Position numbers and translations under genes: made by a program
Notes under the pieces: model-generated
Seen by the model: only the letters and a program-made list of their open reading frames with translations
The model's database searches: none
What the model was told of the DNA's origin: nothing
Shown: piece after piece, positions 2,517-59,563 of the stretch
How positions within the stretch are numbered: the first letter of the stretch is position 1
Layout of the letters: each line of letters opens with the position of its first letter
DNA from: a bacterium
Lineage (GTDB): Bacteria > Patescibacteriota > Patescibacteriia > UBA9934 > GWF2-40-263
DNA: 64,000 nt
Assembly (NCBI GenBank): GCA_020057555.1
Contig: JAGVFR010000026.1
Coordinates: 22,631 to 86,630, forward strand
Reading direction: 5' to 3'

Positions 2517-3221
2517 ATGTCAGAACACATCTTACAAGCCCAACATAGAAACCTTGTTGGCAGAAAATCTCGGCAATTGCGCGCAACAGGAGAAATCCCA
2601 GCGGTCGTTTATGGTTCAGGAATTCAACCATCATCGATAACGATAAATCGCAATGCTTTTTTAAAGACTTATAAACAAGCTGGAGAAAGCTCGATAGTTG
2701 AGCTTTCTGTTGGTGAGAATAAACCTCTCCATGTTTTGATACAGGATACTCAAATCGATCCACTGCTCAATGAAGTTACACATGTTGATTTCCGTTCGAT
2801 TGATATGAATAAGGAAATTGAAGCGTCAGTTCAACTTGAAGTGACTGGGGAATCTCCTGCTGTTAAGGCTCTTGGTGGAACACTTGTGCTTTCACGTAAT
2901 TACGTAACTGTTCGTTGTTTACCTGCAAAACTTGTTCGAAGCCTTGCAGTTGATATTTCTCAACTTGCAACATTTGAAGATTCAATTCGTGTTAAGGATC
3001 TAGTTATTCCTGAAGGCATGACAATAACTGACCAACCAACACTTTCCATAGCAGCTGTTGAGGCTCCTCGTTCAGAGGAAGAAATGGCAGCACTTGATAA
3101 GGCAGTTGAAGTTGATATTAGCACCGTTGAGGTAGCCGGAAAGAAAGAGGAAGAAGAAGCTGCAGCAGTTGAGGAAGGTGCTGAAAAACCAGCTGATGAA
3201 AAAGCTCAAGCTAAAGTTTAA
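2517..3221 (+). CDS. rplY: 50S ribosomal protein L25 / general stress protein Ctc
   Basis: N-terminal RNLVGRKSRQLRATGEIPAVVYG motif typical of L25/Ctc; acidic/Lys-rich C-terminal tail. Confidence 0.85.
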   Translation: MSEHILQAQHRNLVGRKSRQLRATGEIPAVVYGSGIQPSSITINRNAFLKTYKQAGESSIVELSVGENKPLHVLIQDTQIDPLLNEVTHVDFRSIDMNKEIEASVQLEVTGESPAVKALGGTLVLSRNYVTVRCLPAKLVRSLAVDISQLATFEDSIRVKDLVIPEGMTITDQPTLSIAAVEAPRSEEEMAALDKAVEVDISTVEVAGKKEEEEAAAVEEGAEKPADEKAQAKV

Positions 3222-6452: not shown

Positions 6453-6525
6453 AGAGCGGTTGTGCTATGTCTCCGTGCCAGCGGACTCCTCGCCGCTGTT
6501 CACTTCGACATAGCACAACCGCTCT
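6453..6525 (-). repeat. conserved-core hairpin element, copy 1 (core on minus strand); terminator position downstream of prfA
   Basis: 19-bp perfect stem AGAGCGGTTGTGCTATGTC/GACATAGCACAACCGCTCT around a core that is the reverse complement of GAACAGCGGCGAGGAGTCCGCTGGCACGGAGACATAG; on the prfA strand it is followed by a T-tract. Confidence 0.7.
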
Positions 6526-7968: not shown

Positions 7969-8048
7969 AGGTTTTTGACACGCTTTCATACGTGCCATGC
8001 GTGCGAAGATTAACAAGCTGGGTTAACATTGTCAAGAGTTTGAGAAAA

Positions 8049-8084
8049 TAGTAGAAAAGTAGCAAAGTAGTAGAGTAGTAAAGG
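8049..8084 (+). repeat. GA-rich AGTAG-type leader repeat directly upstream of the queA start
   Basis: GTAGAAAAGTAGCAAAGTAGTAGAGTAGTAAAGGG; family also found at 16514, 18168, 27951, 34119. Confidence 0.6.
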
Positions 8085-8089
8085 GAATT

Positions 8090-9181
8090 ATGACACAAAT
8101 TACAGAATTCAATTATCATCTTCCAAGAGAGTTAATCGCACAATGCTCTGTCCAGCCTCGCGACCAATCACGGCTCATGGTTTTGGATAAACAAACAGGG
8201 AAGTTGAACCACAAGAAATTTTTTGAGATTGTTGATGAGTTGAAAACAGGTGATGTACTTGTATTTAATGATACAAAAGTTTTTAGAGCCCGGCTCAAGA
8301 CGCAAAATGGAATTGAGATATTTTTGTTGCGTGCGCGGGAAGACGATATTTGGGAAGTTTTGGCGCGTCCGGGAAAGAAGTTGCAGGTTGGACAAACACT
8401 TTGTATTGAACATGAAACAGAAAAACTTTGTGGAGAAGTGATGTCAAAACAATCAGACGGAACTGTTTTGATAAAATTTGATCGCGTACCAAATGACGTA
8501 ATCGCGTTTGCAAATATATACGGAGAGATTCCTATTCCTCCTTATGTGAAAAATATACCGGAGCGATTGGAAGATTATCAAACGATCTATGCAAAAGAGA
8601 CAGGTTCTGTTGCGGCGCCAACAGCCGGTTTTCACTTCACAGAAGATCTTATGGAAGAATTAAAATCAAAAGGCGTGCAATTCGAATTTGTAACACTTCA
8701 CGTTGGAATTGGAACTTTTCGTCCAATGAAAACAGAAACGATCGAGGAACATGAAATGCACAGCGAGTTTGTTTCTGTCTCAAAAGAGACAGCAGATCGG
8801 ATCAATCAAGCAAAAAAAGATGAGCGACGCGTGATCGCTGTTGGAACGACAACAGTTCGTACACTTGAAGGAGTCGCAAATTATCCCCTGAGCGAAGGTC
8901 AATTAGGCCTTCGACAGGCTCAGGCAATAATTGACCGAAGTCGAATGGGTAATTTTTATCTTCCAGATGGTTTTACAGGCGACGTTAATCTATTTATCAA
9001 ACCAGGCTTTGATTTCAAAATAATTGATGGGCTTATAACGAATTTTCATTTACCAAAATCAACATTACTGGTTTTGGTTTCGGCTTTTGCTGGAAGAGAA
9101 AATGTTTTGCGCGCGTATGAAGAAGCAGTTGCGCAACAGTATCGTTTTTTTTCCTTTGGCGACGCGATGTTTATTGCTTGA
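8090..9181 (+). CDS. queA: S-adenosylmethionine:tRNA ribosyltransferase-isomerase
   Basis: N-terminal FNYHLPRELIAQ and overall QueA layout; carries an in-frame insertion of the 25-nt dispersed repeat at 8908-8932. Confidence 0.9.
   Translation: MTQITEFNYHLPRELIAQCSVQPRDQSRLMVLDKQTGKLNHKKFFEIVDELKTGDVLVFNDTKVFRARLKTQNGIEIFLLRAREDDIWEVLARPGKKLQVGQTLCIEHETEKLCGEVMSKQSDGTVLIKFDRVPNDVIAFANIYGEIPIPPYVKNIPERLEDYQTIYAKETGSVAAPTAGFHFTEDLMEELKSKGVQFEFVTLHVGIGTFRPMKTETIEEHEMHSEFVSVSKETADRINQAKKDERRVIAVGTTTVRTLEGVANYPLSEGQLGLRQAQAIIDRSRMGNFYLPDGFTGDVNLFIKPGFDFKIIDGLITNFHLPKSTLLVLVSAFAGRENVLRAYEEAVAQQYRFFSFGDAMFIA
8908..8932 (+). repeat. dispersed 25-nt repeat CCTTCGACAGGCTCAGGCAATAATT (copy inside queA coding sequence)
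   Basis: Exact 25-mer also at 57313-57337; near-identical copies at 34817-34841 and 20178-20196; flanked here by the 9-bp inverted repeat GGTCAATTA/TAATTGACC. Confidence 0.8.
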
Positions 9182-15271: not shown

Positions 15272-16534
15272 ATGAAAAATTCTATTGAATCTATTCACGC
15301 TGACGAGATATTAGATTCACGCGGAAATCCAACTGTTCAAGTTTCGGTTTTGTTAAAAGATGGAACTGTTGGTTTAGCATCTGTGCCAAGCGGTGCTTCA
15401 ACAGGGTCACACGAAGCGCTCGAACTGCGAGACAATGATAAAAAAAGATACAAAGGAAAAGGTGTGTTGAAAGCAGTTCACAATGTCAATACGACGATTG
15501 CAAAAGCTCTGTACGGAATTGATGTTTCAAAACAACGACAGATCGATCAGATCATGATTGATCTTGATGGTACAAAAAACAAAAGTCGTCTTGGTGCAAA
15601 CGCAATTTTAGGTGTGTCGCTCGCGTGCGCTCATGTTGCGGCAAAAGCAAAAAAGATGCCGCTCTATTCGTATCTGCGTTTTGTGTTTGATATTTCACAT
15701 AAAAAATATCGTTTACCGATTCCAACAATGAACGTGCTAAACGGCGGTGCGCATGCAGGATGGATTTTGGATTTTCAGGAATTTATGATTGTTCCGGTTC
15801 AACATTCGTTTAAAGAGCGAATGCGTTGTGGCGCGGAAGTTTTTTATTCACTTGGAGAACTTTTGAAAAAGAAAGGTTTTACTACATTGAAAGGAGATGA
15901 GGGTGGCTACGCGGTGAAGCTGAAAAAAAATGAAGAAGCTTTGAAATTTATAATGAAAGCGATCAAGCAAGCTGGATATCAAGCTGGAAAAAATGTTTTT
16001 CTTGCGATCGATCCGGCAGTTTCAGAACTTTATAATAAAAAAGACAATCGTTATCATCTAAAAGTTGACAATAAGACTTTGACACAAAAGCAAGTGATTG
16101 CTTTGTGGAAGAGTTGGATTAAAAAATATCCGATTATTTCTTTGGAAGATGGATTGGATCAAGATGATTGGAATGGTTGGGTTGAAATGACAAAACAGAT
16201 CGGAAAGAAAGTCGCGCTTGTTGGCGATGATTTTTTTGTGACAGATGTTGAACGATTGCAAAAAGGAATAAAACTTGGCGCAGGAAATGCAATTTTAATC
16301 AAAGTGAATCAGATTGGAACTTTATCTGAAGCAATGGATGCGATTTTGCTTGCCCAACAGTTCGGGTATAAGGTTTCTGTCTCTCATCGTTCTGGAGAAA
16401 CAGAAGACACGACAATCGCTGATTTGGCTGTTGCTGTGAATGCGGATTTTATCAAAACAGGTTCTTTGTCGCGTTCAGAACGGCTTGCGAAATATAATAG
16501 GTTGTTGGAAATAGAGGAGGAAGTAGCAAAGTAG
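15272..16534 (+). CDS. eno: enolase
   Basis: ILDSRGNPTVQV and SGETED motifs. Confidence 0.95.
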   Translation: MKNSIESIHADEILDSRGNPTVQVSVLLKDGTVGLASVPSGASTGSHEALELRDNDKKRYKGKGVLKAVHNVNTTIAKALYGIDVSKQRQIDQIMIDLDGTKNKSRLGANAILGVSLACAHVAAKAKKMPLYSYLRFVFDISHKKYRLPIPTMNVLNGGAHAGWILDFQEFMIVPVQHSFKERMRCGAEVFYSLGELLKKKGFTTLKGDEGGYAVKLKKNEEALKFIMKAIKQAGYQAGKNVFLAIDPAVSELYNKKDNRYHLKVDNKTLTQKQVIALWKSWIKKYPIISLEDGLDQDDWNGWVEMTKQIGKKVALVGDDFFVTDVERLQKGIKLGAGNAILIKVNQIGTLSEAMDAILLAQQFGYKVSVSHRSGETEDTTIADLAVAVNADFIKTGSLSRSERLAKYNRLLEIEEEVAK

Positions 16535-16565
16535 AAAGGGGAAAGGGAGAAAAGGGGTGAGTGGT
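16514..16565 (+). repeat. GA-rich AGTAG / AAGGGGTGAGTGG repeat overlapping eno stop and forming the gpmI SD region
   Basis: AGTAGCAAAGTAGAAAGGGGAAAGGGAGAAAAGGGGTGAGTGG; related to 18168-18215 and reverse-complementary to the CT-rich arms at 18216-18272 and 37141-37189. Confidence 0.6.
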
Positions 16566-16571
16566 AATGAA

Positions 16572-27910: not shown

Positions 27911-27950
27911 AAAAAACGAACGCAAGAGGCAGATTGTGGATAAGTATGGG

Positions 27951-28066
27951 AGAGTAGATAAGTAGTAGAGTAGCAAAGTAGAAAAGGGAATTGATTGGTG
28001 ATTTTACTGCAAATTTTTCAACCCTCTGCTACTATGCTACTCTTCTACTCTGCTACTTTTTTATCC
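27951..28066. repeat. AGTAG-family inverted repeat pair (GA-rich arm, CT-rich arm) in the lexA/metK divergent intergenic region
   Basis: GATAAGTAGTAGAGTAGCAAAGTAGAAAAGGG ... CTCTGCTACTATGCTACTCTTCTACTCTGCTACTTTTTT; CT arm ends 5 nt before the metK ATG. Confidence 0.6.
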
Positions 28067-28067
28067 T

Positions 28068-29117
28068 ATGTTCAAAACAGTTGAATCAGTAACAATGGGC
28101 CAACCTGACAAAGTCTGCGATCAAATCGCTGAAGCTATTGTTGATGAGTATTTACGTCGTGATACACATGCAAATGTTGATATTCATGTTTTTGGAGCAC
28201 ACGGAATGTTAATGGTCGGTGGCGAGGTAAATTCAAGCGCTGATTTTGATATTGGAGCGCTTGCCAAAAAAGTCTATCAGGAAATTGGTTATCCAGATGA
28301 CATTGAAGTTTTTGTGAATATAGAAACACCATCTGAAGAAATGAAGCATGTTAAAAACGGTGTGCGCGATACAATTGTAATAAACGGATACGCAACAAAT
28401 GAAACACGCGAACGTTTACCAAGAGCTGTTGTTTTCGCACATACGCTAGCGCGAAGACTTGATGATTTGCGCAAAACCGATCCTAAGTTTTCATGGATGA
28501 AACCAGATGGAAAAGTTCAAATTTCAATGCAAGGCGATCGTGTGCAAGCCGTAACAGTTTTAGCCTCGCATCACGTCAGCATTGAAGCGAGAGATGTAAA
28601 AACAGCATTGCTTGAACGTCTTGTCATGCCAGCGATTGGCGAAGACGCTGTGCAGATTTTTATCAATCCTATTGGGGAATTTACTGTTGCAGGATTTCGA
28701 GGTGATTCAGGCGCGAGCGGTAGGAAAATTTGTGTTGATACATACGGCGGTCTTATTCCTCATGGCGACAAGTCGTTTGTTGGAAAAGATCCATTGCGCG
28801 CAGAACGAGCCGGCTCATTCATGGCAAGATATGTTGCTCGTGATCTTGTTGAGCAAGGATTGGCCGCTTCAGTTTTGGTGAACGTTGTTTATACGATCGG
28901 AAAAGCAGAGCCGATTTATATCAACGCAACAGGTGTGTGTGGAAAATCTCAAGGCGGAAAAATTGATTTGACTGATGTTGTAAAACAGAAATTCGATTTT
29001 CGTCCTGAAGCAATTGTTGAACGTTTGCAACTTTGTCAGCCAATATATCAGAGAATGGCAGTGTATGGATATTTTGGTCGAGAAGGTGCACCTTGGGAAT
29101 TAAAAGTGATACAATAG
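28068..29117 (+). CDS. metK: S-adenosylmethionine synthetase (bacterial type)
   Basis: ESVTMGQPDKVCDQIAEAIVDEY N-terminus and GRKICVDTYGG / GKDPLRAERAGSFMARYVA motifs align with bacterial MetK. Confidence 0.9.
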   Translation: MFKTVESVTMGQPDKVCDQIAEAIVDEYLRRDTHANVDIHVFGAHGMLMVGGEVNSSADFDIGALAKKVYQEIGYPDDIEVFVNIETPSEEMKHVKNGVRDTIVINGYATNETRERLPRAVVFAHTLARRLDDLRKTDPKFSWMKPDGKVQISMQGDRVQAVTVLASHHVSIEARDVKTALLERLVMPAIGEDAVQIFINPIGEFTVAGFRGDSGASGRKICVDTYGGLIPHGDKSFVGKDPLRAERAGSFMARYVARDLVEQGLAASVLVNVVYTIGKAEPIYINATGVCGKSQGGKIDLTDVVKQKFDFRPEAIVERLQLCQPIYQRMAVYGYFGREGAPWELKVIQ

Positions 29118-31334: not shown

Positions 31335-31335
31335 A

Positions 31336-31405
31336 GGAGCGTGGAGCTGTGTCGCAGGGAACAGCGGCGAAGAGTCCGCTGGCCCGGAGACATAGCTCCA
31401 CGCTC
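31336..31405 (+). repeat. conserved-core hairpin element, copy 2; terminator position after the GH-like gene
   Basis: Stem GAGCGTGGAGCTGTGTC/GACATAGCTCCACGCTC around core GCAGGGAACAGCGGCGAAGAGTCCGCTGGCCCGGA; followed by ATTTAATTTATTTTTT. Confidence 0.7.
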
Positions 31406-31423
31406 ATTTAATTTATTTTTTGT

Positions 31424-34118: not shown

Positions 34119-34165
34119 AGGTGGAGATAGTAGTTAGTAGCAGAGTAGCATAGTAGCGGAAGGTT
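34119..34165. repeat. AGTAG-family repeat abutting the greA start (CT-rich in gene sense)
   Basis: GGTGGAGATAGTAGTTAGTAGCAGAGTAGCATAGTAGCGGAAGG. Confidence 0.6.
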
Positions 34166-34219
34166 GAAAAATTAAACAAAAAACCACCCAGCTTTACGAG
34201 GAGGGTGGCAGATGAGAGA

Positions 34220-34807: not shown

Positions 34808-34816
34808 TGTAGTTTG

Positions 34817-34841
34817 CCTTCGACAAGCTCAGGCAATAATT
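34817..34841 (+). repeat. dispersed 25-nt repeat copy (CCTTCGACAAGCTCAGGCAATAATT) in the divergent promoter region
   Basis: 1 mismatch to the 8908 copy; flanked by CATTGTAG/CTATAATG inverted repeat. Confidence 0.8.
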
Positions 34842-34854
34842 CTATAATGTCTTC

Positions 34855-36252
34855 ATGCTTTCTCGAATTACTGAAAAAACTTTCTATCAATACATCAAAT
34901 GCCCGAATTGGGTTTACTTTGATGTGCATGCATTTGAAAAACGAGTTCGTGATCCTCTTATGGATCGCTTGATTGATGATGGGCTTCTTGATGAAAAACA
35001 GCGTGAGATCATTTCTGATCGCACTGACATGGTAGAAGTTACATCTGAAGATCCTGATGAAGCGTTTCGACAAACACTTGAGTTTATGCGCGAAGGTCGT
35101 CAAACGATTTTTCACTCTGTACTCATTGATAAAAATTTTGTTGGACATCCTGATGTGCTTGAAAAAGTTGAAGGGCGTTCGAAGCTTGGTGATTTTTATT
35201 ATGTTGCGGTTGATCTTAAACGTTCACGTTTTTTACGCGACGATCATAAATTTCAAGGATGTTTTTATGCTGAACTTCTTGAACGAATTCAAGATGTGAA
35301 GCCTGTTCAAGGTTACATCATCACACCTGACAAAATTGTTTTGCCATATTTGATTAGTGAGTTTGAAGGAGAATTCACTCTTACACTTTCAGAGATTGAA
35401 AAGATTATTGTTGGCACACAGCCAGTTCATTTTGTAACTTCAGGATGTAAACAATCACCATGGTTCAAAGAATGTCGTGGTGAATCCGAAACGTGCGATG
35501 ATTTGTCGTTATTGAATCGAGTTTGGCGTCAAGAAGTTGCTCGTTTGTTAAAAGCAGGAGTCAACACAATATCGGAACTTTCGCTAAAATCTTTGGTTGA
35601 TCTTGAGCGTTTGGCTCCTGATGTTAGTTCATCTCGGCTTGAGATTATGCGCGATCAAGCAATTGCGATAAAGGAGCATCGGCATATTTTTCGTGGAACG
35701 GTTGAACTTCCTGTTGCAAAGATCGAAGTTTTTTTTGATATTGAAAGTGATCCGCTTCGAGATTTTGATTATCTTTTTGGAGTGCTTGTAGTTGAAAATC
35801 GCAGTGAATCGTATCAATCGTTTTTTGCGGTAACTCCAGCGCAAGAAAAAGACGCGTGGGATGAGTTTGTCGCTTTTGTTGAAGGACATTTGGACGCGCC
35901 GATTTATCACTTTGGTCAGTTTGAAGTTGAAGTTGTTAATCGTTTTAGCGCGCGATATGGGATTTCTGCGATTGCGCGAGAAGCGCTTGAACGTAACATG
36001 ATTGATTTGCTTGAAGTGATTCGTCCTGCTGTAATTTTTCCTTTGTCATTTTATTCGCTCAAAGATATTGCCGCTTATTTGGGTTTTGAGTGGCGTGCTT
36101 CTGACGCATCTGGTGCGAATTCTGTTTTGTGGTTTGAAGAATGGTTGAAGAAAAAAAATCAAAAGTTGTTGCAAAAAATTCTTGAGTATAATGAAGATGA
36201 CGTGCGCGCAACTGCTCATGTAAAAAAATGGTTATGTGAAAATGCAATATGA
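34855..36252 (+). CDS. RecB-family (PD-(D/E)XK) nuclease with C-terminal RNase-H-like domain, TM0106-type
   Basis: N-terminal Cys-containing nuclease domain (YQYIKCPNWVYFD); C-terminal EVFFDIESDPL exonuclease-like motif. Confidence 0.6.
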   Translation: MLSRITEKTFYQYIKCPNWVYFDVHAFEKRVRDPLMDRLIDDGLLDEKQREIISDRTDMVEVTSEDPDEAFRQTLEFMREGRQTIFHSVLIDKNFVGHPDVLEKVEGRSKLGDFYYVAVDLKRSRFLRDDHKFQGCFYAELLERIQDVKPVQGYIITPDKIVLPYLISEFEGEFTLTLSEIEKIIVGTQPVHFVTSGCKQSPWFKECRGESETCDDLSLLNRVWRQEVARLLKAGVNTISELSLKSLVDLERLAPDVSSSRLEIMRDQAIAIKEHRHIFRGTVELPVAKIEVFFDIESDPLRDFDYLFGVLVVENRSESYQSFFAVTPAQEKDAWDEFVAFVEGHLDAPIYHFGQFEVEVVNRFSARYGISAIAREALERNMIDLLEVIRPAVIFPLSFYSLKDIAAYLGFEWRASDASGANSVLWFEEWLKKKNQKLLQKILEYNEDDVRATAHVKKWLCENAI

Positions 36253-37139
36253 AAACAAGTTGGTTTCGAAATTGTGCGGAGTTAATTATCTTGATCGCTA
36301 TCATTGCCACGGTTTACACACAACGCGTGGGGATTTCGCAGTGGTTTCGAGAAATGATGGAGCCGTCTGTGCCAGAGGCAGTGGAGTTTGAAAAAATAAC
36401 AGAGGAAAAGGAAGAAGGTAGTCGCGGGCTTCAGCCCGCGCAAGCGCCAGTCATCCCGAGTGCCGTCGATGGATCTGAAGAAAAAATATTGCCTGAACCT
36501 GTTGAAGGCAGTATAGATGATGTAGTTGTCACTTCGACAAGCTCAGTGGATAAAATTTTGCCTGTTGAAATCAATCTCGCTGTTCCTTTTACATCTCAAG
36601 CTCCGCACGCGAATTGGGATTTACCATATAAAGAAACATGCGAAGAAGCATCGCTCTATATGGTTGATGTTTATTATAAAGGAGTAAAAGCGGGGAAGAT
36701 TGCGGCTGATACTGCGGACGAGGAGATTAAAAAAATTATAGAATTTGAAAAAGAAATTTTTGGATATTATGAAGACACAACCGCAGAACAAGTTGGAATT
36801 CTTGCGGAAATGATGTATGGTCACGAAAAAATTGAACTGATCGAAAATCCAACTGTTGAACAAATTAAAAAACATGTTGCTGAAGGACATCCGGTTATTG
36901 TTCCTGCGGCAGGACGAGAACTTGGTAATCCGAATTTCACAGCGCCTGGTCCGATATATCACATGTTAGTGATTCGCGGATACACAAAAGATGGTAAATT
37001 CATCACAAATGATCCGGGCACAAAAAACGGCGAAGCATATGTTTACGATTTTGACACAGTTATGAACGCGATGCATGATTGGAACAATGGTGACGAGATC
37101 ACGGAAGGAAAAAAGGTAGTACTAATTGTTTATCCATAA
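36249..37139 (+). CDS. peptidase C39-like domain protein (YvpB-like), membrane-anchored
   Basis: N-terminal TM; FTSQAPHANWDLPYKETCEEAS Cys-containing block resembling C39-like domains. Confidence 0.45.
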   Translation: MKTSWFRNCAELIILIAIIATVYTQRVGISQWFREMMEPSVPEAVEFEKITEEKEEGSRGLQPAQAPVIPSAVDGSEEKILPEPVEGSIDDVVVTSTSSVDKILPVEINLAVPFTSQAPHANWDLPYKETCEEASLYMVDVYYKGVKAGKIAADTADEEIKKIIEFEKEIFGYYEDTTAEQVGILAEMMYGHEKIELIENPTVEQIKKHVAEGHPVIVPAAGRELGNPNFTAPGPIYHMLVIRGYTKDGKFITNDPGTKNGEAYVYDFDTVMNAMHDWNNGDEITEGKKVVLIVYP

Positions 37140-37189: not shown

Positions 37190-37663
37190 ATGGACTACAT
37201 TCTTGGTGGATCACTTGGTGCAATTGTCGCTTTCATTTTCGCAATTCCCGCGATCGTTCTTGAGATCAAGCAAAAAGGTGAAGCGACTGATGCTCCGCTA
37301 ATTGTTGATGCGCGAAAAATTTTCGGTCGTCGTCTAAAAAAGCAAGAAGCATTTTTGGTTGGCTTGCTCATCCATATTATTTTTGGATTCTTGTTTGGAT
37401 TGATTTACGTTTTATTTGTTTTGCAAGGATGGCTGTTTGTCACGCACGCGCCATACACATTTTTGTCTTTAATTGTTTATGCGTTATTAAGTTGGATTGT
37501 CGCAGGAGTTGTTATTTATCCCGCGCTTGGTATGGGATTGTTTGCACGTCGTGAAGGAAAACACGTTTGGATTGAAACTCTCACGTCGCATTTGATTCTT
37601 GGAATTTGTTTGTGGCTTCTTGTTCAATATTATCAGCCACAGTTTTTTATTATTCCAATTTAA
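37190..37663 (+). CDS. hypothetical integral membrane protein (4 TM)
   Basis: Hydrophobic helices throughout; 157 aa. Confidence 0.5.
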   Translation: MDYILGGSLGAIVAFIFAIPAIVLEIKQKGEATDAPLIVDARKIFGRRLKKQEAFLVGLLIHIIFGFLFGLIYVLFVLQGWLFVTHAPYTFLSLIVYALLSWIVAGVVIYPALGMGLFARREGKHVWIETLTSHLILGICLWLLVQYYQPQFFIIPI

Positions 37664-37667
37664 ACTA

Positions 37668-37840
37668 GTCGTTGCGAAGCCGAACCATGTCTCCGGGCCA
37701 ACGGACTTTTCGCCGTTTGTGTTGTCCGGTCTGGCTTTCAGACAGACATCGGCCAACCCGTTTCGGAGGTACGAAGCCAAGCAGTTGGCTTCTTTACTCC
37801 TCCTCTACTCCCTTCGACATGGTTCGAGCTTCGCAACGAC
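37668..37840 (-). repeat. conserved-core hairpin element, copy 3 (expanded, core on minus strand) filling the whole intergenic gap before xseA
   Basis: 24-bp stems GTCGTTGCGAAGCCGAACCATGTC / GACATGGTTCGAGCTTCGCAACGAC; core is the reverse complement of CACAAACGGCGAAAAGTCCGTTGGCCCGGAGACATG plus about 85 extra structured nt. Confidence 0.7.
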
Positions 37841-37846
37841 AGAAAT

Positions 37847-39040
37847 GTGAATACTCTCCGCACAATTTCAGTTGCAGAATTTATCAAGCTTGTAAACGAA
37901 ACTCTGCGACTTATTCCGTCGCAGGAGTTTGTTGTTGAAGGTGAAATTTCCGATTTTCGAATTGCGCAAGATAAGTGGATCAGCTTTGATTTGAAAGATG
38001 AAAATGGAGAAGCAGTGCTTAAGTGTTTCATGACAACTTGGCAATTGCGTGTACAGATAGAAGATGGAATGCGTGTGCAAGTCCGTGGAACTCCAAAAGT
38101 TTATGAGCGATACGGGCAGTTCAAAATGAATGTTCAGGAAGTCGAGCCTGTTGGAGAAGGAGCTCTTAAACGCGCGTACGAACTTTTGAAAAAGAAACTT
38201 GAGCAAGAAGGTTTGTTTGATGTTTCGCGCAAACGTTCTTTGCCGCGTTTTCCAAAACGAATCGGTCTTATCACTTCTCGCGATGCGGCCGCGTACGGCG
38301 ACTTTCTTCAAATTCTAAACAACCGTTGGGGAGGCGTTTCAGTTTTTCATTTGAATGTTCATGTTCAAGGCAGGGAAGCAGTATCAGATTTACTCGGAGC
38401 GTTTGAGTATTTCAATGAGTTGTCTGATACAGAGCGTCCCGATGTCTTGGTTCTTACTCGTGGTGGTGGAGGGTTGGAAGATTTACACGCATTTAACGAC
38501 GAGAGTGTTGCGCGCGCAGTATTCGGTTCAAAAATTCCAGTTGTGTGTGGAGTCGGACATGAACGTGACGAATCGCTTTGTGATTTTGTTGCTGATGTTC
38601 GCGCGTCAACTCCATCAAACGCGGCAGAAAGAGTTGTTCCAAACAGAGAAGAAGTTCGTTATGAAATTGAGATGATGTGTCAACATTCTGAAGAGCGTTT
38701 GCTTAACCAGTTGAGTCAGAAATCATTGATTGTTGAACGCGCAACAAATGTGATAGGGCGAATCATTAGTCAACAAAATGAACGGCTGAAGCATTTGCGT
38801 CAGAGATTTTTTGACGTGACTCATGTTTGGGCGCCAGCGCTTTTTGATCAAATAGATGGATTTGAAAAGATTTTGCGACAACTTGATCCAAAACGTGTGC
38901 TTGCTCGCGGCTACGGAATTGTTACGATAAACGGCCAAGTCTTAAAGGATGTTTCATCACTTGAAATCGGAGCTTCTGTTGGAGTACAATTGGCAAAAGG
39001 CTCATTTGAATCTTATGTCACAAAAAAAGAAAACAATTGA
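37847..39040 (+). CDS. xseA: exodeoxyribonuclease VII large subunit
   Basis: OB-fold N-terminus plus ExoVII large-subunit catalytic domain. Confidence 0.9.
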   Translation: MNTLRTISVAEFIKLVNETLRLIPSQEFVVEGEISDFRIAQDKWISFDLKDENGEAVLKCFMTTWQLRVQIEDGMRVQVRGTPKVYERYGQFKMNVQEVEPVGEGALKRAYELLKKKLEQEGLFDVSRKRSLPRFPKRIGLITSRDAAAYGDFLQILNNRWGGVSVFHLNVHVQGREAVSDLLGAFEYFNELSDTERPDVLVLTRGGGGLEDLHAFNDESVARAVFGSKIPVVCGVGHERDESLCDFVADVRASTPSNAAERVVPNREEVRYEIEMMCQHSEERLLNQLSQKSLIVERATNVIGRIISQQNERLKHLRQRFFDVTHVWAPALFDQIDGFEKILRQLDPKRVLARGYGIVTINGQVLKDVSSLEIGASVGVQLAKGSFESYVTKKENN

Positions 39041-41189: not shown

Positions 41190-41428
41190 TTGTTTCCAGA
41201 TTTATTAGTATATCTTCGAACTAGAGATTCGCCGTAGAAAACGGGTTCCGAAAGGATAAATCCCGTCGAGGTGAAAGAAAAACGTTTGGCGTTTTTCGAT
41301 CAACTTGCGGTGTGAATCGCAGGTTCTTTTATTAAAGGTCGAAAAATAAATAGCCATTAGCCGTTAGCCACTAGCCTTTAGGAAGGCAGTTAATCGAGCT
41401 AATAGCTAAAGGCTAACAGCTTTCCCTT
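41190..41428 (+). promoter_or_regulatory. rplJ upstream leader (candidate L10 autoregulatory leader) with terminator/promoter and TAGCC-repeat palindrome
   Basis: Terminator-like CCTGTTCGCAACTCGCGAGCAGG plus T7 at about 41142-41170, then TTGACA...TATATC, then a structured leader; L10-leader identity is from general operon knowledge, not verified. Confidence 0.35.
41348..41420. repeat. TAGCC-repeat inverted pair immediately upstream of rplJ
   Basis: TAGCCATTAGCCGTTAGCCACTAGCC ... GCTAATAGCTAAAGGCTAACAGC; the same family sits upstream of mreB (52088-52155). Confidence 0.65.
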
Positions 41429-42431: not shown

Positions 42432-42730
42432 TTACTCTTTTTTCTAGTTTGTTGTGCAAGTATTTAGATCGTCCGTATCCTCTGTTCTTGATCGTTGTCG
42501 TGAGTCGAAGAGGATAACCAACGTAAGTGGCGGTGGCTTATTTCTCGACGGCGTGGATCGACGTAGATGACCAAACGATTTTACTTTTAGTCTCAATACA
42601 TTCAATAAACTACACAAGAGACAGTTACGGGACATTTTTTCTGCCGTTGGTTCTGTATGAAGGCCAAGAAAAAGGAGTTCCGTCTGTCTCCACTGGAACA
42701 AACGATGGTTGAAGGTGGATAAAAAACAGA

Positions 42731-48233: not shown

Positions 48234-48308
48234 GGATCAGTTTGCATCATGTCGTAAGGAACAACGGCGAAGAGTCCGTTGGCCCGGAGATATGGTGCAA
48301 ACTGATCC
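48234..48308 (+). repeat. conserved-core hairpin element, copy 4
   Basis: Stem GGATCAGTTTGCATCAT / ATGGTGCAAACTGATCC around core GTCGTAAGGAACAACGGCGAAGAGTCCGTTGGCCCGGAGAT. Confidence 0.7.
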
Positions 48309-52091: not shown

Positions 52092-52155
52092 CTATTAGCC
52101 GTTAGTATAAATAAGTGAAGCCAAAGCCTAAAGGCTAATGGCTAACAGCTAATGG
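52088..52155. repeat. TAGCC-repeat inverted pair immediately upstream of mreB
   Basis: CTAGCTATTAGCCGTTAG ... CCTAAAGGCTAATGGCTAACAGCTAATGGCC; overlaps the stop of the upstream gene. Confidence 0.65.
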
Positions 52156-52165
52156 CCACGCTCCT

Positions 52166-55708: not shown

Positions 55709-55718
55709 GGAAAGAGCT

Positions 55719-55838
55719 ATAGCCATCACATTATAAAATGGGACTTTAGACGACTTACCTGTGGATGGGATGCGAAGGACAAGCAGACCGCCACAGGAAA
55801 GGATGGATAAATCCTATTTCATAATGTGATGGCTATAC
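55719..55838. repeat. 120-nt element bounded by perfect 17-bp terminal inverted repeats
   Basis: TATAGCCATCACATTAT ... ATAATGTGATGGCTATA; internal CCTGTGG...CCACAGG and GGAT..ATCC sub-hairpins. Confidence 0.6.
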
Positions 55839-56186
55839 AGTCTTGCGACCGCGCGGTCGTTGGACATTACATTATGATTCCGTACTTATAAAGATGAAAA
55901 ACAAGCAGGTTGCCATTTTTAATTTTTTATGGAGTATGGAACCATAATGTAATGTCCACATTCCTCTCACAGGTCTTCATTGCAAGCATGGAGCAATGGA
56001 AAACTGTGATTGGAGGGCGACGTTGGAAAGATATCCTTCGTCGCCCAAGAGTTTGCCTTCTCGGCTGGAGGCTCTGCTTCCTCTTGGCTCACCGTTTTAG
56101 GAAGGTGACTCCTTTTTGTCGCGTGTTTCAGATTGTAGTGGAATGTGTTAACTCACTTTGCCCTCCTAAATGTTTGGTTTTTTTGG

Positions 56187-57197: not shown

Positions 57198-57312
57198 GTG
57201 TCCTGGGTCCCGAACCTACACCACGTAGGAACGGATCAATTTATAGAACCTATCGGTCCTACGACCTTAGCAGTTTGGAAATTGTTATACCTTGAGCGAA
57301 GGAAAATTACTG

Positions 57313-57337
57313 CCTTCGACAGGCTCAGGCAATAATT
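57313..57337 (+). repeat. dispersed 25-nt repeat copy between the two high-GC genes
   Basis: Exact match to 8908-8932; flanked by AAATTACTG/CAATAATTT. Confidence 0.8.
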
Positions 57338-57463
57338 TGCCGGAGTCGGAGGGTTAGATTCAATTTCTAAACTATTAAGATCGTTCCGGGTGGCGTGTTC
57401 AGGGAAAGAAATCCCTTTACACACCACCCGGAAGATATAGAGCGGAGAGAGCGGAAAGAACTA

Positions 57464-58573: not shown

Positions 58574-58620
58574 CACTCCGTCACTTCTTCACTCCGTCAC
58601 TTCTTCACTCCGTCACTTTG
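58574..58620 (+). repeat. tandem 16-mer CACTCCGTCACTTCTT x3 directly upstream of holB
   Basis: Seen directly; related CACTCCATTACTCCATCACT at 54340-54366 upstream of the TrmB-like gene. Confidence 0.7.
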
Positions 58621-58639
58621 TGTTACACTAAAATCTGTT

Positions 58640-59563
58640 ATGGAACCTTTTTCTAAGACGATCGGCCACAAAACGGCACGACAAGTGTTTTTGCGCATGA
58701 TAGAAAACAACCAGCTTCCGCATGCGATTCTTTTTGTTGGTCCAAAACATGTTGGGAAAACTCATCTTGTCACAGAATTGATCCAGCATCTTTTTCATAC
58801 AATACGTCATCCATCGCTCATTTCCGATGTTAGTCTTTTAGCAAGAGAAGTTGATCCAAAAACAGGCAAGAAAAAATTCGCTATTTCTGTTAAACAAGTT
58901 CGTGCTCTTGTTGAACGTCTTTCAATGACTCCAATGGAAGGAAATTGGAAAATCGCGTTCATTCAAGAAGCTGATCGGCTTTCGATCGGAGCCGCGAATG
59001 CGCTTCTCAAAACACTTGAAGAACCAAAAGGAAACGCTCTTATAATTTTACGCGCGCCAAGTGTTGAATCTGTTTTGCAAACAATCGCGTCTCGTTGTCA
59101 GATTTTTCGACTGTCGCCTGTTGCCAAATCAGAAATTATTCCAGCGCTTCAAAAACGTGGGCTTTCAAAAACAGAAGCAGATGAAATTTCAGAGCGATCT
59201 TTTGGTTGTCCGGGAATTGCGATTCGATATATTCAAGATAGTGAAATGCGCGCGCGCAAAGAAACAGCGATCGCGCAAGTCGAAACTTTAATGAACGCGT
59301 CGCTTCCAGAGCAATTTAGATTAGTTTTTGATCTCATTCCAAAAACAGAAATTGACAAGTCTATTGCACTTTCTCATTTGCTCGATGATTGGTCAGAAGT
59401 GTTGCGCGCGAATTTATTAAAAACAGTCGCTGAAAAGCAAACAGCAACCGTGAATAAAACCGCTCGCGTTCTAAATTGTATTCAAACTGTTCGTAGCGCG
59501 ATTTCTCACAACATAAATCCTCATTTATCTTTAGAACATATTTTTTTATCAACACATGTATGA
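58640..59563 (+). CDS. holB: DNA polymerase III delta' subunit
   Basis: AAA+ Walker A GPKHVGKT and delta-prime layout. Confidence 0.8.
   Translation: MEPFSKTIGHKTARQVFLRMIENNQLPHAILFVGPKHVGKTHLVTELIQHLFHTIRHPSLISDVSLLAREVDPKTGKKKFAISVKQVRALVERLSMTPMEGNWKIAFIQEADRLSIGAANALLKTLEEPKGNALIILRAPSVESVLQTIASRCQIFRLSPVAKSEIIPALQKRGLSKTEADEISERSFGCPGIAIRYIQDSEMRARKETAIAQVETLMNASLPEQFRLVFDLIPKTEIDKSIALSHLLDDWSEVLRANLLKTVAEKQTATVNKTARVLNCIQTVRSAISHNINPHLSLEHIFLSTHV

Follow-up and report, generated by a model that had tools for sequence, protein, structure and literature searches.

The 173-nt hairpin that separates a DUF2938 gene from xseA in the window, by which we mean the whole stretch of 64,000 nucleotides that was analysed, belongs to a new lineage-specific repeat family rather than being a special regulator of xseA. 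Candidatus Uhrbacteria sequences related to the window, which together amount to about 0.5 Mb, contain around 90 copies of this family. In our assessment, it is probably a non-autonomous, modular, non-coding hairpin repeat of this lineage, of the REP/REPIN, BOX, SPRITE and ERIC kind, which would be propagated or homogenised via a single-stranded intermediate and which would sit at xseA as a passenger (copy D). For xseA itself this outcome is deflationary, since the hairpin is no xseA-specific leader.

The hairpin upstream of xseA and its relatives

A first-pass annotation, made from the sequence letters, had described a hairpin of 173 nt with 24-bp terminal stems, which occupied the entire xseA upstream region and carried its core in inverted orientation relative to both flanking genes. 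In agreement with this description, copy D fills the complete gap between the DUF2938 gene, whose stop codon (37661–37663) is followed by the element 4 nt later, and xseA. Its arms form 24 pairs with one bulged A in the right arm, and it is antisense to both neighbours; for the other three copies in the window, the upstream gene runs in the same direction as the strand with ...GGCGAAGAGUCCG... (Table 1). The start of xseA, annotated as an ATG 7 nt after the element, had to be corrected. An ATG does occur at 37845, but in another frame than xseA and directly followed by TGA; the in-frame start is a GTG at 37847, with 6 nt between the end of the element (37840) and this codon. No Shine-Dalgarno sequence was found between the element and the GTG (37841–37849). 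In the xseA ortholog of a related locus (L065; L-numbers denote related loci from MAGs and metagenomes), an ATG with AAGAGG upstream lies at the position matching the GTG of the window, where the GTG comes right after a hairpin of −86 kcal/mol.

This value was obtained for the RNA of the + strand (z = −9.0), and the − strand folded at −92 kcal/mol (z = −8.2); none of 200 shuffled sequences folded as well as copy D RNA. As single-stranded DNA, copy D reached −54 kcal/mol (z = −9.1). Folding also predicted the further hairpins that had been noticed in the extra segment, namely GAAGCCAAGCAGTTGGCTTC and one around 37728–37750. The GC content at copy D is 0.49–0.54, as compared to about 0.40 in the flanks. 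On the gene strand, a U tract 3′ of copy D is absent and AGAAATGTG / AGAAAUGUG is found there instead. A terminator scan listed no site spanning copy D, and a promoter scan returned two weak − strand matches at the element edge, which were not above shuffled sequence. A coding function is doubtful: the TCTCCG strand is open, but the frame is GC-rich, of low complexity and without conserved context. The possibility that the outer 11 bp of the copy D stem are a native palindrome of this locus, serving as insertion site for the elements, was discarded, since the same 25-nt stem type is present at a different locus, in the short copies L054 1291–1375 and L030 4059–4131.

Table 1. Coordinates in the window of copy D, its parts, its neighbouring genes and the three short copies.
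Feature	Position	Strand	Remarks
Whole long-form element (copy D)	37668–37840	−	Strand that best keeps the family structure, reading ...GGCGAAAAGUCCGUUGGCCCGGAGAC...
P1 basal stem, left arm	37668–37691		GTCGTTGCGAAGCCGAACCATGTC; 24 nt
Core 3′ half	37692–37718	−	P3 AACGG/CCGUU; GNRNA-type loop CGAAAAGU closed by C-G; unpaired G; CCC of P2; GGA of the 3×3 loop
Module 1, hairpin b	37719–37759	−	GGGUUGG..GUCUGUC-UGAAA-GCCAGAC..CAACAC
Module 1, hairpin a	37760–37808	−	GUAGAGGAGG..GAAGCCAA-CUGC-UUGGCUUC..CCUCCGAAAC
Core 5′ junction	37809–37815	−	GAA (internal loop), GGG (P2), A
P1 basal stem, right arm	37816–37840		GACATGGTTCGAGCTTCGCAACGAC; 25 nt, one bulged A
DUF2938 membrane protein gene (upstream)	37190–37663	+	Stop codon at 37661–37663
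xseA (exonuclease VII large subunit)	37847–39040	+	GTG start
Short copy A	6453–6525	−	Starts 12 nt after the release-factor gene stop; UUUUUU follows on that strand
Short copy B	31335–31407	+	Between a convergent DUF4015 gene and an unknown gene; U-rich tail
Short copy C	48235–48307	+	Between two glycosyltransferase genes

Four occurrences of the conserved core were found in the window (6470, 31374, 37690, and 48274), as compared to 0.06 expected by chance, and a covariance model built from the short copies did not reveal any copy in the 64 kb beyond those four. Outside the window, which is 77–94% identical to several related loci over kilobases, a pattern scan of GTDB species genomes returned 17 loci, all of them in three groundwater Candidatus Uhrbacteria MAGs; given the identity just mentioned, the window stems from a relative of these MAGs. 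The same scan of metagenomes returned 49 loci, of which 45 are real; the other four (L020, L046, L048, and L062) are chance matches in unrelated high-GC DNA and were dropped. Viral contigs scanned with the core pattern gave no match. A model search of ~0.46 Mb of related Uhrbacteria DNA then yielded 70 short copies and five with a 40-nt insertion, and 14 further long copies, 13 of them distinct, were extracted from related loci. As in the rest of the family, copy D combines the apex GNA-GGG-AA-CARCGG-CGARRAGU-CCGYUG-G-CCC-GGA with a long stem ending in ATGTC/GACAT; its apex is on the − strand, and a 90-nt module replaces the AAC junction.

We found no description of this hairpin family in the literature on Uhrbacteria or CPR repeats. 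Rfam 15 at gathering threshold, applied to the window, the 17 loci, and the fullest copy (L019), detected only tRNA and tmRNA elsewhere, and at E ≤ 10 copy D and L019 matched nothing relevant, twister, hammerhead, hatchet, pistol, HDV-like, HEARO, 6S, and SRP RNAs included. A tRNA scan of the window found none.

A drifting stem, a conserved apex and two modules

Short copies are 73 nt long and consist of a variable stem (P1) around a 35-nt core, with the reference strand of the family reading GUCGNAGGGAACARCGGCGARRAGUCCGYUGGCCCGGAGAC. P1 covaries: it is a stem of 19–25 bp whose sequence drifts while its pairing is kept, and in 47 distinct short copies 97.4% of the cells were paired and 17 of 19 pairs had changed on both sides. 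In controls with slid partners, only 33–41% of the cells were paired. The apex above it comprises a 3×3 internal loop (GNA/GGA), a 3-bp helix P2 (GGG/CCC), AA opposite G, and a 6-bp helix P3 (CARCGG/CCGYUG). It is capped by the apical loop CGARRAGU, a C-G closed GNR(N)A pentaloop with a bulged U, for which a subfamily has CGACAGU, and the loop variants follow the GNR(N)A pattern (GAAGA, GAGGA, and GAAAA, plus a GACA variant). The middle pair of P2 switches between G-C and U-A (GGG/CCC vs GUG/CAC) in 14 copies, and one pair of P3 switches between A-U and G-C, also in 14 copies. Identity between copies amounts to 53–54% in the outer P1 arms, 88–91% in the core, and 96% in the 90-nt module. Conserved terminal inverted repeats, the classical feature of MITEs, are therefore not a property of this family, since it is the centre (88–96%) and not the outer arms (53–54%) that is conserved.

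The extra segment of copy D, which the first-pass annotation had estimated at about 85 nt, is 90 nt long (37719–37808) and lies between GGGA and AAACGG. Comparison of the copies, as that annotation had proposed, showed that the segment recurs at the same junction, with 96% mean identity, in at least 14 other copies, which stem from several genomes (L011, L013, L014, L019, L023, L025, L027 [twice], L036, L047/L057, L054, L059, and L067; L057 is an identical duplicate of L047, hence the 13 distinct copies mentioned above). Thus, it is a standard optional module (module 1) and not unique cargo. Family-wide, the junction is located between GGGA and (A/U)RCGG, at the same point in every long copy, and the module, which surpasses all other parts of the element in conservation, was found with both core loop variants, CGAAGAGU and CGACAGU. 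In the predicted fold, its two hairpins leave P1, P2, and P3 intact. Hairpin a is invariant in 14 long copies save for the changes C33A and G84A of copy D. When aligned over 98 columns with the long copies from elsewhere (13 distinct ones), copy D differs by four private changes in the module; of all private changes in this copy, three disrupt predicted pairs. Across 14 copies, the module helices showed one compensatory pair (in L054) and few breaks, and were otherwise invariant.

The segment had been interpreted either as the cargo of a mobile mini-element or as an accessory domain of a structured RNA, both of which were to be given up if it turned out to be unique and unstructured on covariation. 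Uniqueness is contradicted by its recurrence, and covariation is silent with respect to an RNA domain because the module is nearly invariant. The RNA-domain reading retains the predicted independent folding of the module; the copies, however, occur in both orientations relative to host genes. The idea of a mobile mini-element finds indirect support in the turnover of sites and the alternation of short and long forms described below.

The 40-nt insertion mentioned above constitutes a second module (module 2, CCGTCGCCGGCCGAAGCCGGCTATGGCCGGCGTAGGCCGG), located between GGCCCGG and AGAC in L019, L025, L031, L043, and L065 and flanked by the short direct repeat GCCCGG/GGCCGG. One copy, L019 9459–9664, carries both modules. 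Hairpins of the module-1a type were also detected elsewhere, once downstream of a tRNA gene and once as part of a different element with several hairpins; the complete 90-nt module 1 was never found outside this hairpin family in the related loci.

Position, strand bias and turnover

Copies are located just past stop codons, in either orientation. At 60 non-redundant loci we counted 34 adjacencies between an element and a stop codon (stop within 60 nt), with some hairpins between convergent genes counting twice, and the hairpin base lay at a median of ~10 nt past the stop. Copy A, close to a stop and followed by UUUUUU, has a terminator-like look, and copy B has a U-rich tail as well. However, at least five T in the next 8 nt were present in only 9 of the 34 gene-proximal tails, and not in that of copy D. 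With crude ORF picks as gene calls, roughly 26 copies were antisense to genes, 16 sense, 9 convergent, and 2 divergent. No promoter common to the copies was found upstream of them.

On the reference strand, the wobble pairs of P1 comprised 58 G·U and 11 A·C, counts that include related copies and hence do not represent independent events. Split by orientation relative to the genes, the G·U:A·C ratio was 16:3 (sense) and 13:1 (antisense). As the bias runs the same way in both groups, pairing is kept on a strand defined by the element and not on the strand of the host mRNA. A dependence on the replication strand was rejected, because the orientations in the window (−, +, −, + over 42 kb) do not fit a single replication direction. 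Flipping of the apex by recombination between the arms was also rejected as the source of orientation, since frequent flips would randomise the 58:11 bias.

Both the occupation of a site and the form of the element turn over between close relatives. The gap upstream of xseA contains the long form in the window, L047, and L057, stem remnants (GTCATTG...TTCGCAATGAC) around a different repeat in JACPHT01, an unrelated palindrome belonging to another hairpin family in L065, and octamer repeats in JACQXU01. The locus of copy C holds a short copy in the window and L037, the copy with modules 1 and 2 in L019, and no element in JACPHT01 (L004), and the ortholog of copy B in JACPHT01 (L016) is reversed in orientation. 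At window position 36250 the genes overlap without any element, which is present there in L002, L017, and L057. In L027 (long) and L041 (short), which come from different samples, flanks, P1, and core are 100% identical and the module is the sole difference. This difference is not a clean indel, as the module replaces one base, and so the short form cannot be a simple deletion of the long one; form switching would thus need replacement from another copy, although it could partly reflect repeat-induced misassembly of metagenome contigs. We did not find a clean empty site with a target duplication among the two candidate empty sites: L022 has undergone a deletion at a microhomology (CTG), and L031 has an ambiguous junction.

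Other repeats share these intergenic sites. A second repeat family, GCCTTCGAC..GGCTCAGGCAATAATT..GTCGAAKGG, was detected in the window at 8907–8951, 34816–34860, and 57312–57356, and in L002 at 3105–3197. It is this family that fills the xseA upstream gap in JACPHT01, and it shares the motif GTCGAAGG with the core junction of the hairpin. Intergenic repeats with a period of 7–8 nt (AGTAGCAA/AGTAGAAA, GCCATTAGCC/GGCTAAAGG, and AAAACCCA), often arranged in inverted blocks, fill sites where relatives carry the hairpin element (window 8039–8089, 16522–16567, 27945–28076, 34136–34188, 41353–41382, and 52127–52156; L017 3480–3547; L065 1742–1836). In several loci, the hairpin is nested within a composite whose outer part is the inverted repeat GGATCNTCTGTTC...GAACAGAGGATCC (L004 7045–7218, L018 1100–1290, L028 440–640, L059, and L065 12600–12850); L022 (376–395) has the composite minus the hairpin, which was lost by the deletion at the CTG microhomology.

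Known repeat systems, alternative readings and the search for a mobilising gene

Compensatory changes are common in REPIN hairpins (PMC3116915). Like REPIN/REP elements mobilised by RAYT enzymes, the elements described here are short, non-coding, extragenic, multi-copy, and vertically persisting, and form long hairpins in single-stranded DNA or RNA; strand-specific recognition of a single strand, as in the REPIN/RAYT system, would explain the wobble bias. In contrast, REPINs conserve their two ends around a varying spacer, which is the reverse of a fixed apex with variable ends, and optional internal modules are not a REPIN feature. The GTAG head of REPs is also in the minority here, with a GTAGC...GCTAC frame in few copies (L002, L004, L006, L057, and the long copy of L011) and most beginning with GAGC or GGAGC. 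In the BOX elements of Streptococcus pneumoniae (boxA-boxB(n)-boxC), the end modules pair as a stem, the internal module folds on itself and is optional, and length varies between strains at one locus (PMC3049150). This likeness is one of architecture and no sequence relationship is expected; BOX elements have conserved terminal repeats, target duplications, and a tandem boxB array, whereas we found single modules at two fixed junctions of the apex, more conserved than the stem. SPRITEs, the pneumococcal repeats resembling Rho-independent terminators, have a stem of ~18 bp, are enriched near the 3′ ends of CDSs, and are possibly co-opted as terminators (PMC3049150). Copies A and B look alike, but SPRITEs are AT-rich with a long U tract, while our family is GC-rich in a genome of ~41% GC, has a structured conserved apex, and in most copies, the one at xseA among them, is not followed by a U tract.

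ERIC/IRU and Correia (NEMIS) elements are imperfect palindromes of ~100–160 nt that exist in two size classes according to an internal segment at a defined position, and that are co-transcribed with neighbouring genes and can alter mRNA processing. The two size classes are shared with our family, without homology being expected: ERIC and Correia elements are proteobacterial, and the latter have conserved terminal repeats and a TA duplication. Integron attC sites are recognised as a folded single strand of one polarity, their structure is more conserved than their sequence, and their terminal structure varies greatly in length and can hold extra hairpins. However, their conserved boxes are at the base and their apex is variable, the opposite of what we observed, and they flank cassettes in arrays beside an integrase, whereas the hairpin copies are dispersed singly. 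Finally, boxB loops of phage lambda follow the GNR(N)A pattern, as does the apical C-GAAGA-G (GAGGA, GAAAA) of the family, but this is a motif of only 5 nt, with no N-like protein, no nut-site context, and a different stem.

In the reading that we favour, the copies would have spread and/or been homogenised by copy-and-paste or by gene conversion from other copies. The intermediate would be single-stranded and of fixed polarity, either single-stranded DNA or the element's own RNA, and its apex would be recognised by some enzyme. Such recognition on an intermediate of fixed polarity would account for an apex and modules far more conserved than the stem, and the fixed polarity itself for the build-up of wobble pairs on one strand regardless of the direction of the host gene. 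Copy D would be a passenger, an intercistronic stem-loop between the DUF2938 gene and xseA that is co-transcribed with them on the strand where its structure is less conserved. Without a U tract, it may at most affect transcript processing or stability and access to the xseA start, and the presence of a different repeat in the same gap of related genomes argues against any specific tie to xseA.

The main rival reading, though a doubtful one in our view, is a functional structured RNA family in which the apex is a binding or catalytic site on a variable stem. Modules 1 and 2 would be peripheral domains that can be dispensed with, a design known from ribozymes and riboswitches whose stems vary; such an RNA might serve as a signal for protein binding or processing, or else cleave or mobilise itself in a way new to science. 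A fixed apex with variable ends is what such an RNA looks like, and together with the RNA-like GNRNA apical loop and tandem G·A loops this counts against the reading that we favour. It is consistent with covariation far above controls in P1, P2, and P3, with the invariance of the unpaired apex nucleotides and loop changes that obey GNR(N)A, with wobble pairs favouring one strand, and with modules that are predicted to fold alone while leaving the core pairings intact, module 1 being the most conserved part of all. Yet about half of the copies, copy D included, are antisense to the only obvious transcription, no promoter is shared upstream, and the wobble bias is independent of host transcription. 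Moreover, neither a ribozyme nor any other Rfam family was matched even at E ≤ 10, the module helices are essentially without covariation and three predicted pairs are broken in copy D, and unrelated repeats replace the element at the same site in related genomes. Quite unlikely, in our opinion, is the more radical proposal that CPR bacteria harbour, in this family, a structured nucleic acid that propagates itself and is new in kind, either a ribozyme-like or retro-mobile small RNA or a single-stranded DNA hairpin. The fixed apex and plug-in modules would then be functional, the stem would only present the apex, the long form would be the complete active version, and recognition on one strand would fall to a class of enzymes that has so far not been associated with elements of this sort.

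We regard as similarly improbable that module 1 is a nested mini-element, a hairpin cassette inserting and excising at one site of the host hairpin, which would make copy D a mobile element within a mobile element. The difference between L027 and L041, confined to the module, points in this direction, as do the pairing of module 1 with two different core variants, the direct repeat bordering module 2, and the apical hairpins of module-1a type in other contexts. On the other hand, the complete module 1 stays within this family, has neither terminal inverted repeats nor a target duplication, and replaces one base at its junction, and the same observations are accounted for by gene conversion with a long-form copy as donor. 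That the hairpins are ordinary intrinsic terminators or chance look-alikes, with copy D as a locally expanded terminator of the DUF2938 gene, is extremely improbable despite starts ~10 nt past stop codons and the U-rich tails of copies A and B. An apex of 35 nt that is 91% identical over ~90 copies and a 90-nt module that is 96% identical cannot be convergent, so that sequence conservation already contradicts this explanation; in addition, stems of 19–25 bp are far longer than those of usual terminators, and the T-rich tails expected of them are as scarce as described above and lacking in copy D.

CPR bacteria such as Uhrbacteria have genomes of ~1 Mb and are regarded as streamlined. This lineage nonetheless holds several families of GC-rich intergenic hairpin repeats, with fast turnover at the same sites. 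Among small bacterial repeats, the family described here is unusual in conserving its centre and not its ends, in having plug-in modules at fixed junctions, and in keeping its pairing on one strand whichever way the host genes are transcribed. If the single-stranded intermediate that we infer is real, an unrecognised mobilising or homogenising activity is to be expected in these uncultured organisms. In practice, such repeats also break assemblies of CPR genomes and lead to spurious "regulatory RNA" annotations in them.

When the 30 larger ORFs of the window were compared with Pfam, they corresponded to housekeeping or uncharacterised proteins or had no match, with no transposase, integrase, or reverse transcriptase, and none of these 30 ORFs contained a domain of the Y1 HUH (RAYT) type, whose genes are usually flanked by their cognate repeat. 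We also screened ~0.5 Mb of related loci with a crude HUH+Y motif for Y1 transposases, which is a weak test, and obtained no candidate. Small GTAG-headed palindromes (GTAGCCGCAGGCTTCAGCCTGCG) with classical REP architecture are present in L008 (7805), L021 (7273), L056 (240), and L065 (6285), and, from their sequence, hint at a RAYT-type enzyme in these genomes. A conserved multi-copy non-coding block containing CTGTCTCTTGTGTA, presumably resembling the mosaic end of Tn5/IS50, was detected at window 42611–42706 and in L005, L006, L018, L028, L038, L053, and L059, and often adjoins hairpin copies. Inside the Peptidase_C39_2 gene (36249–37139), an in-frame stretch of 150 nt (36416–36566) is missing from the JACPHT01 ortholog; it holds a REP-like hairpin (CGCGGGCTGAAGCCCGCGACTAC, 36424–36446) and a fragment of the second repeat family (36483–36513), and judging by this content it looks as if repeats had inserted into a coding gene, in the manner of the palindromic elements of Rickettsia. 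Two AT-rich inverted repeats unrelated to the hairpin family, with arms of 26–29 nt that are 90–92% complementary, are located at 55718–55837 and 55861–55958, and a short tandem repeat (GACGGAGTGAAGAAGT, about three copies) lies on the − strand at 58587–58640.
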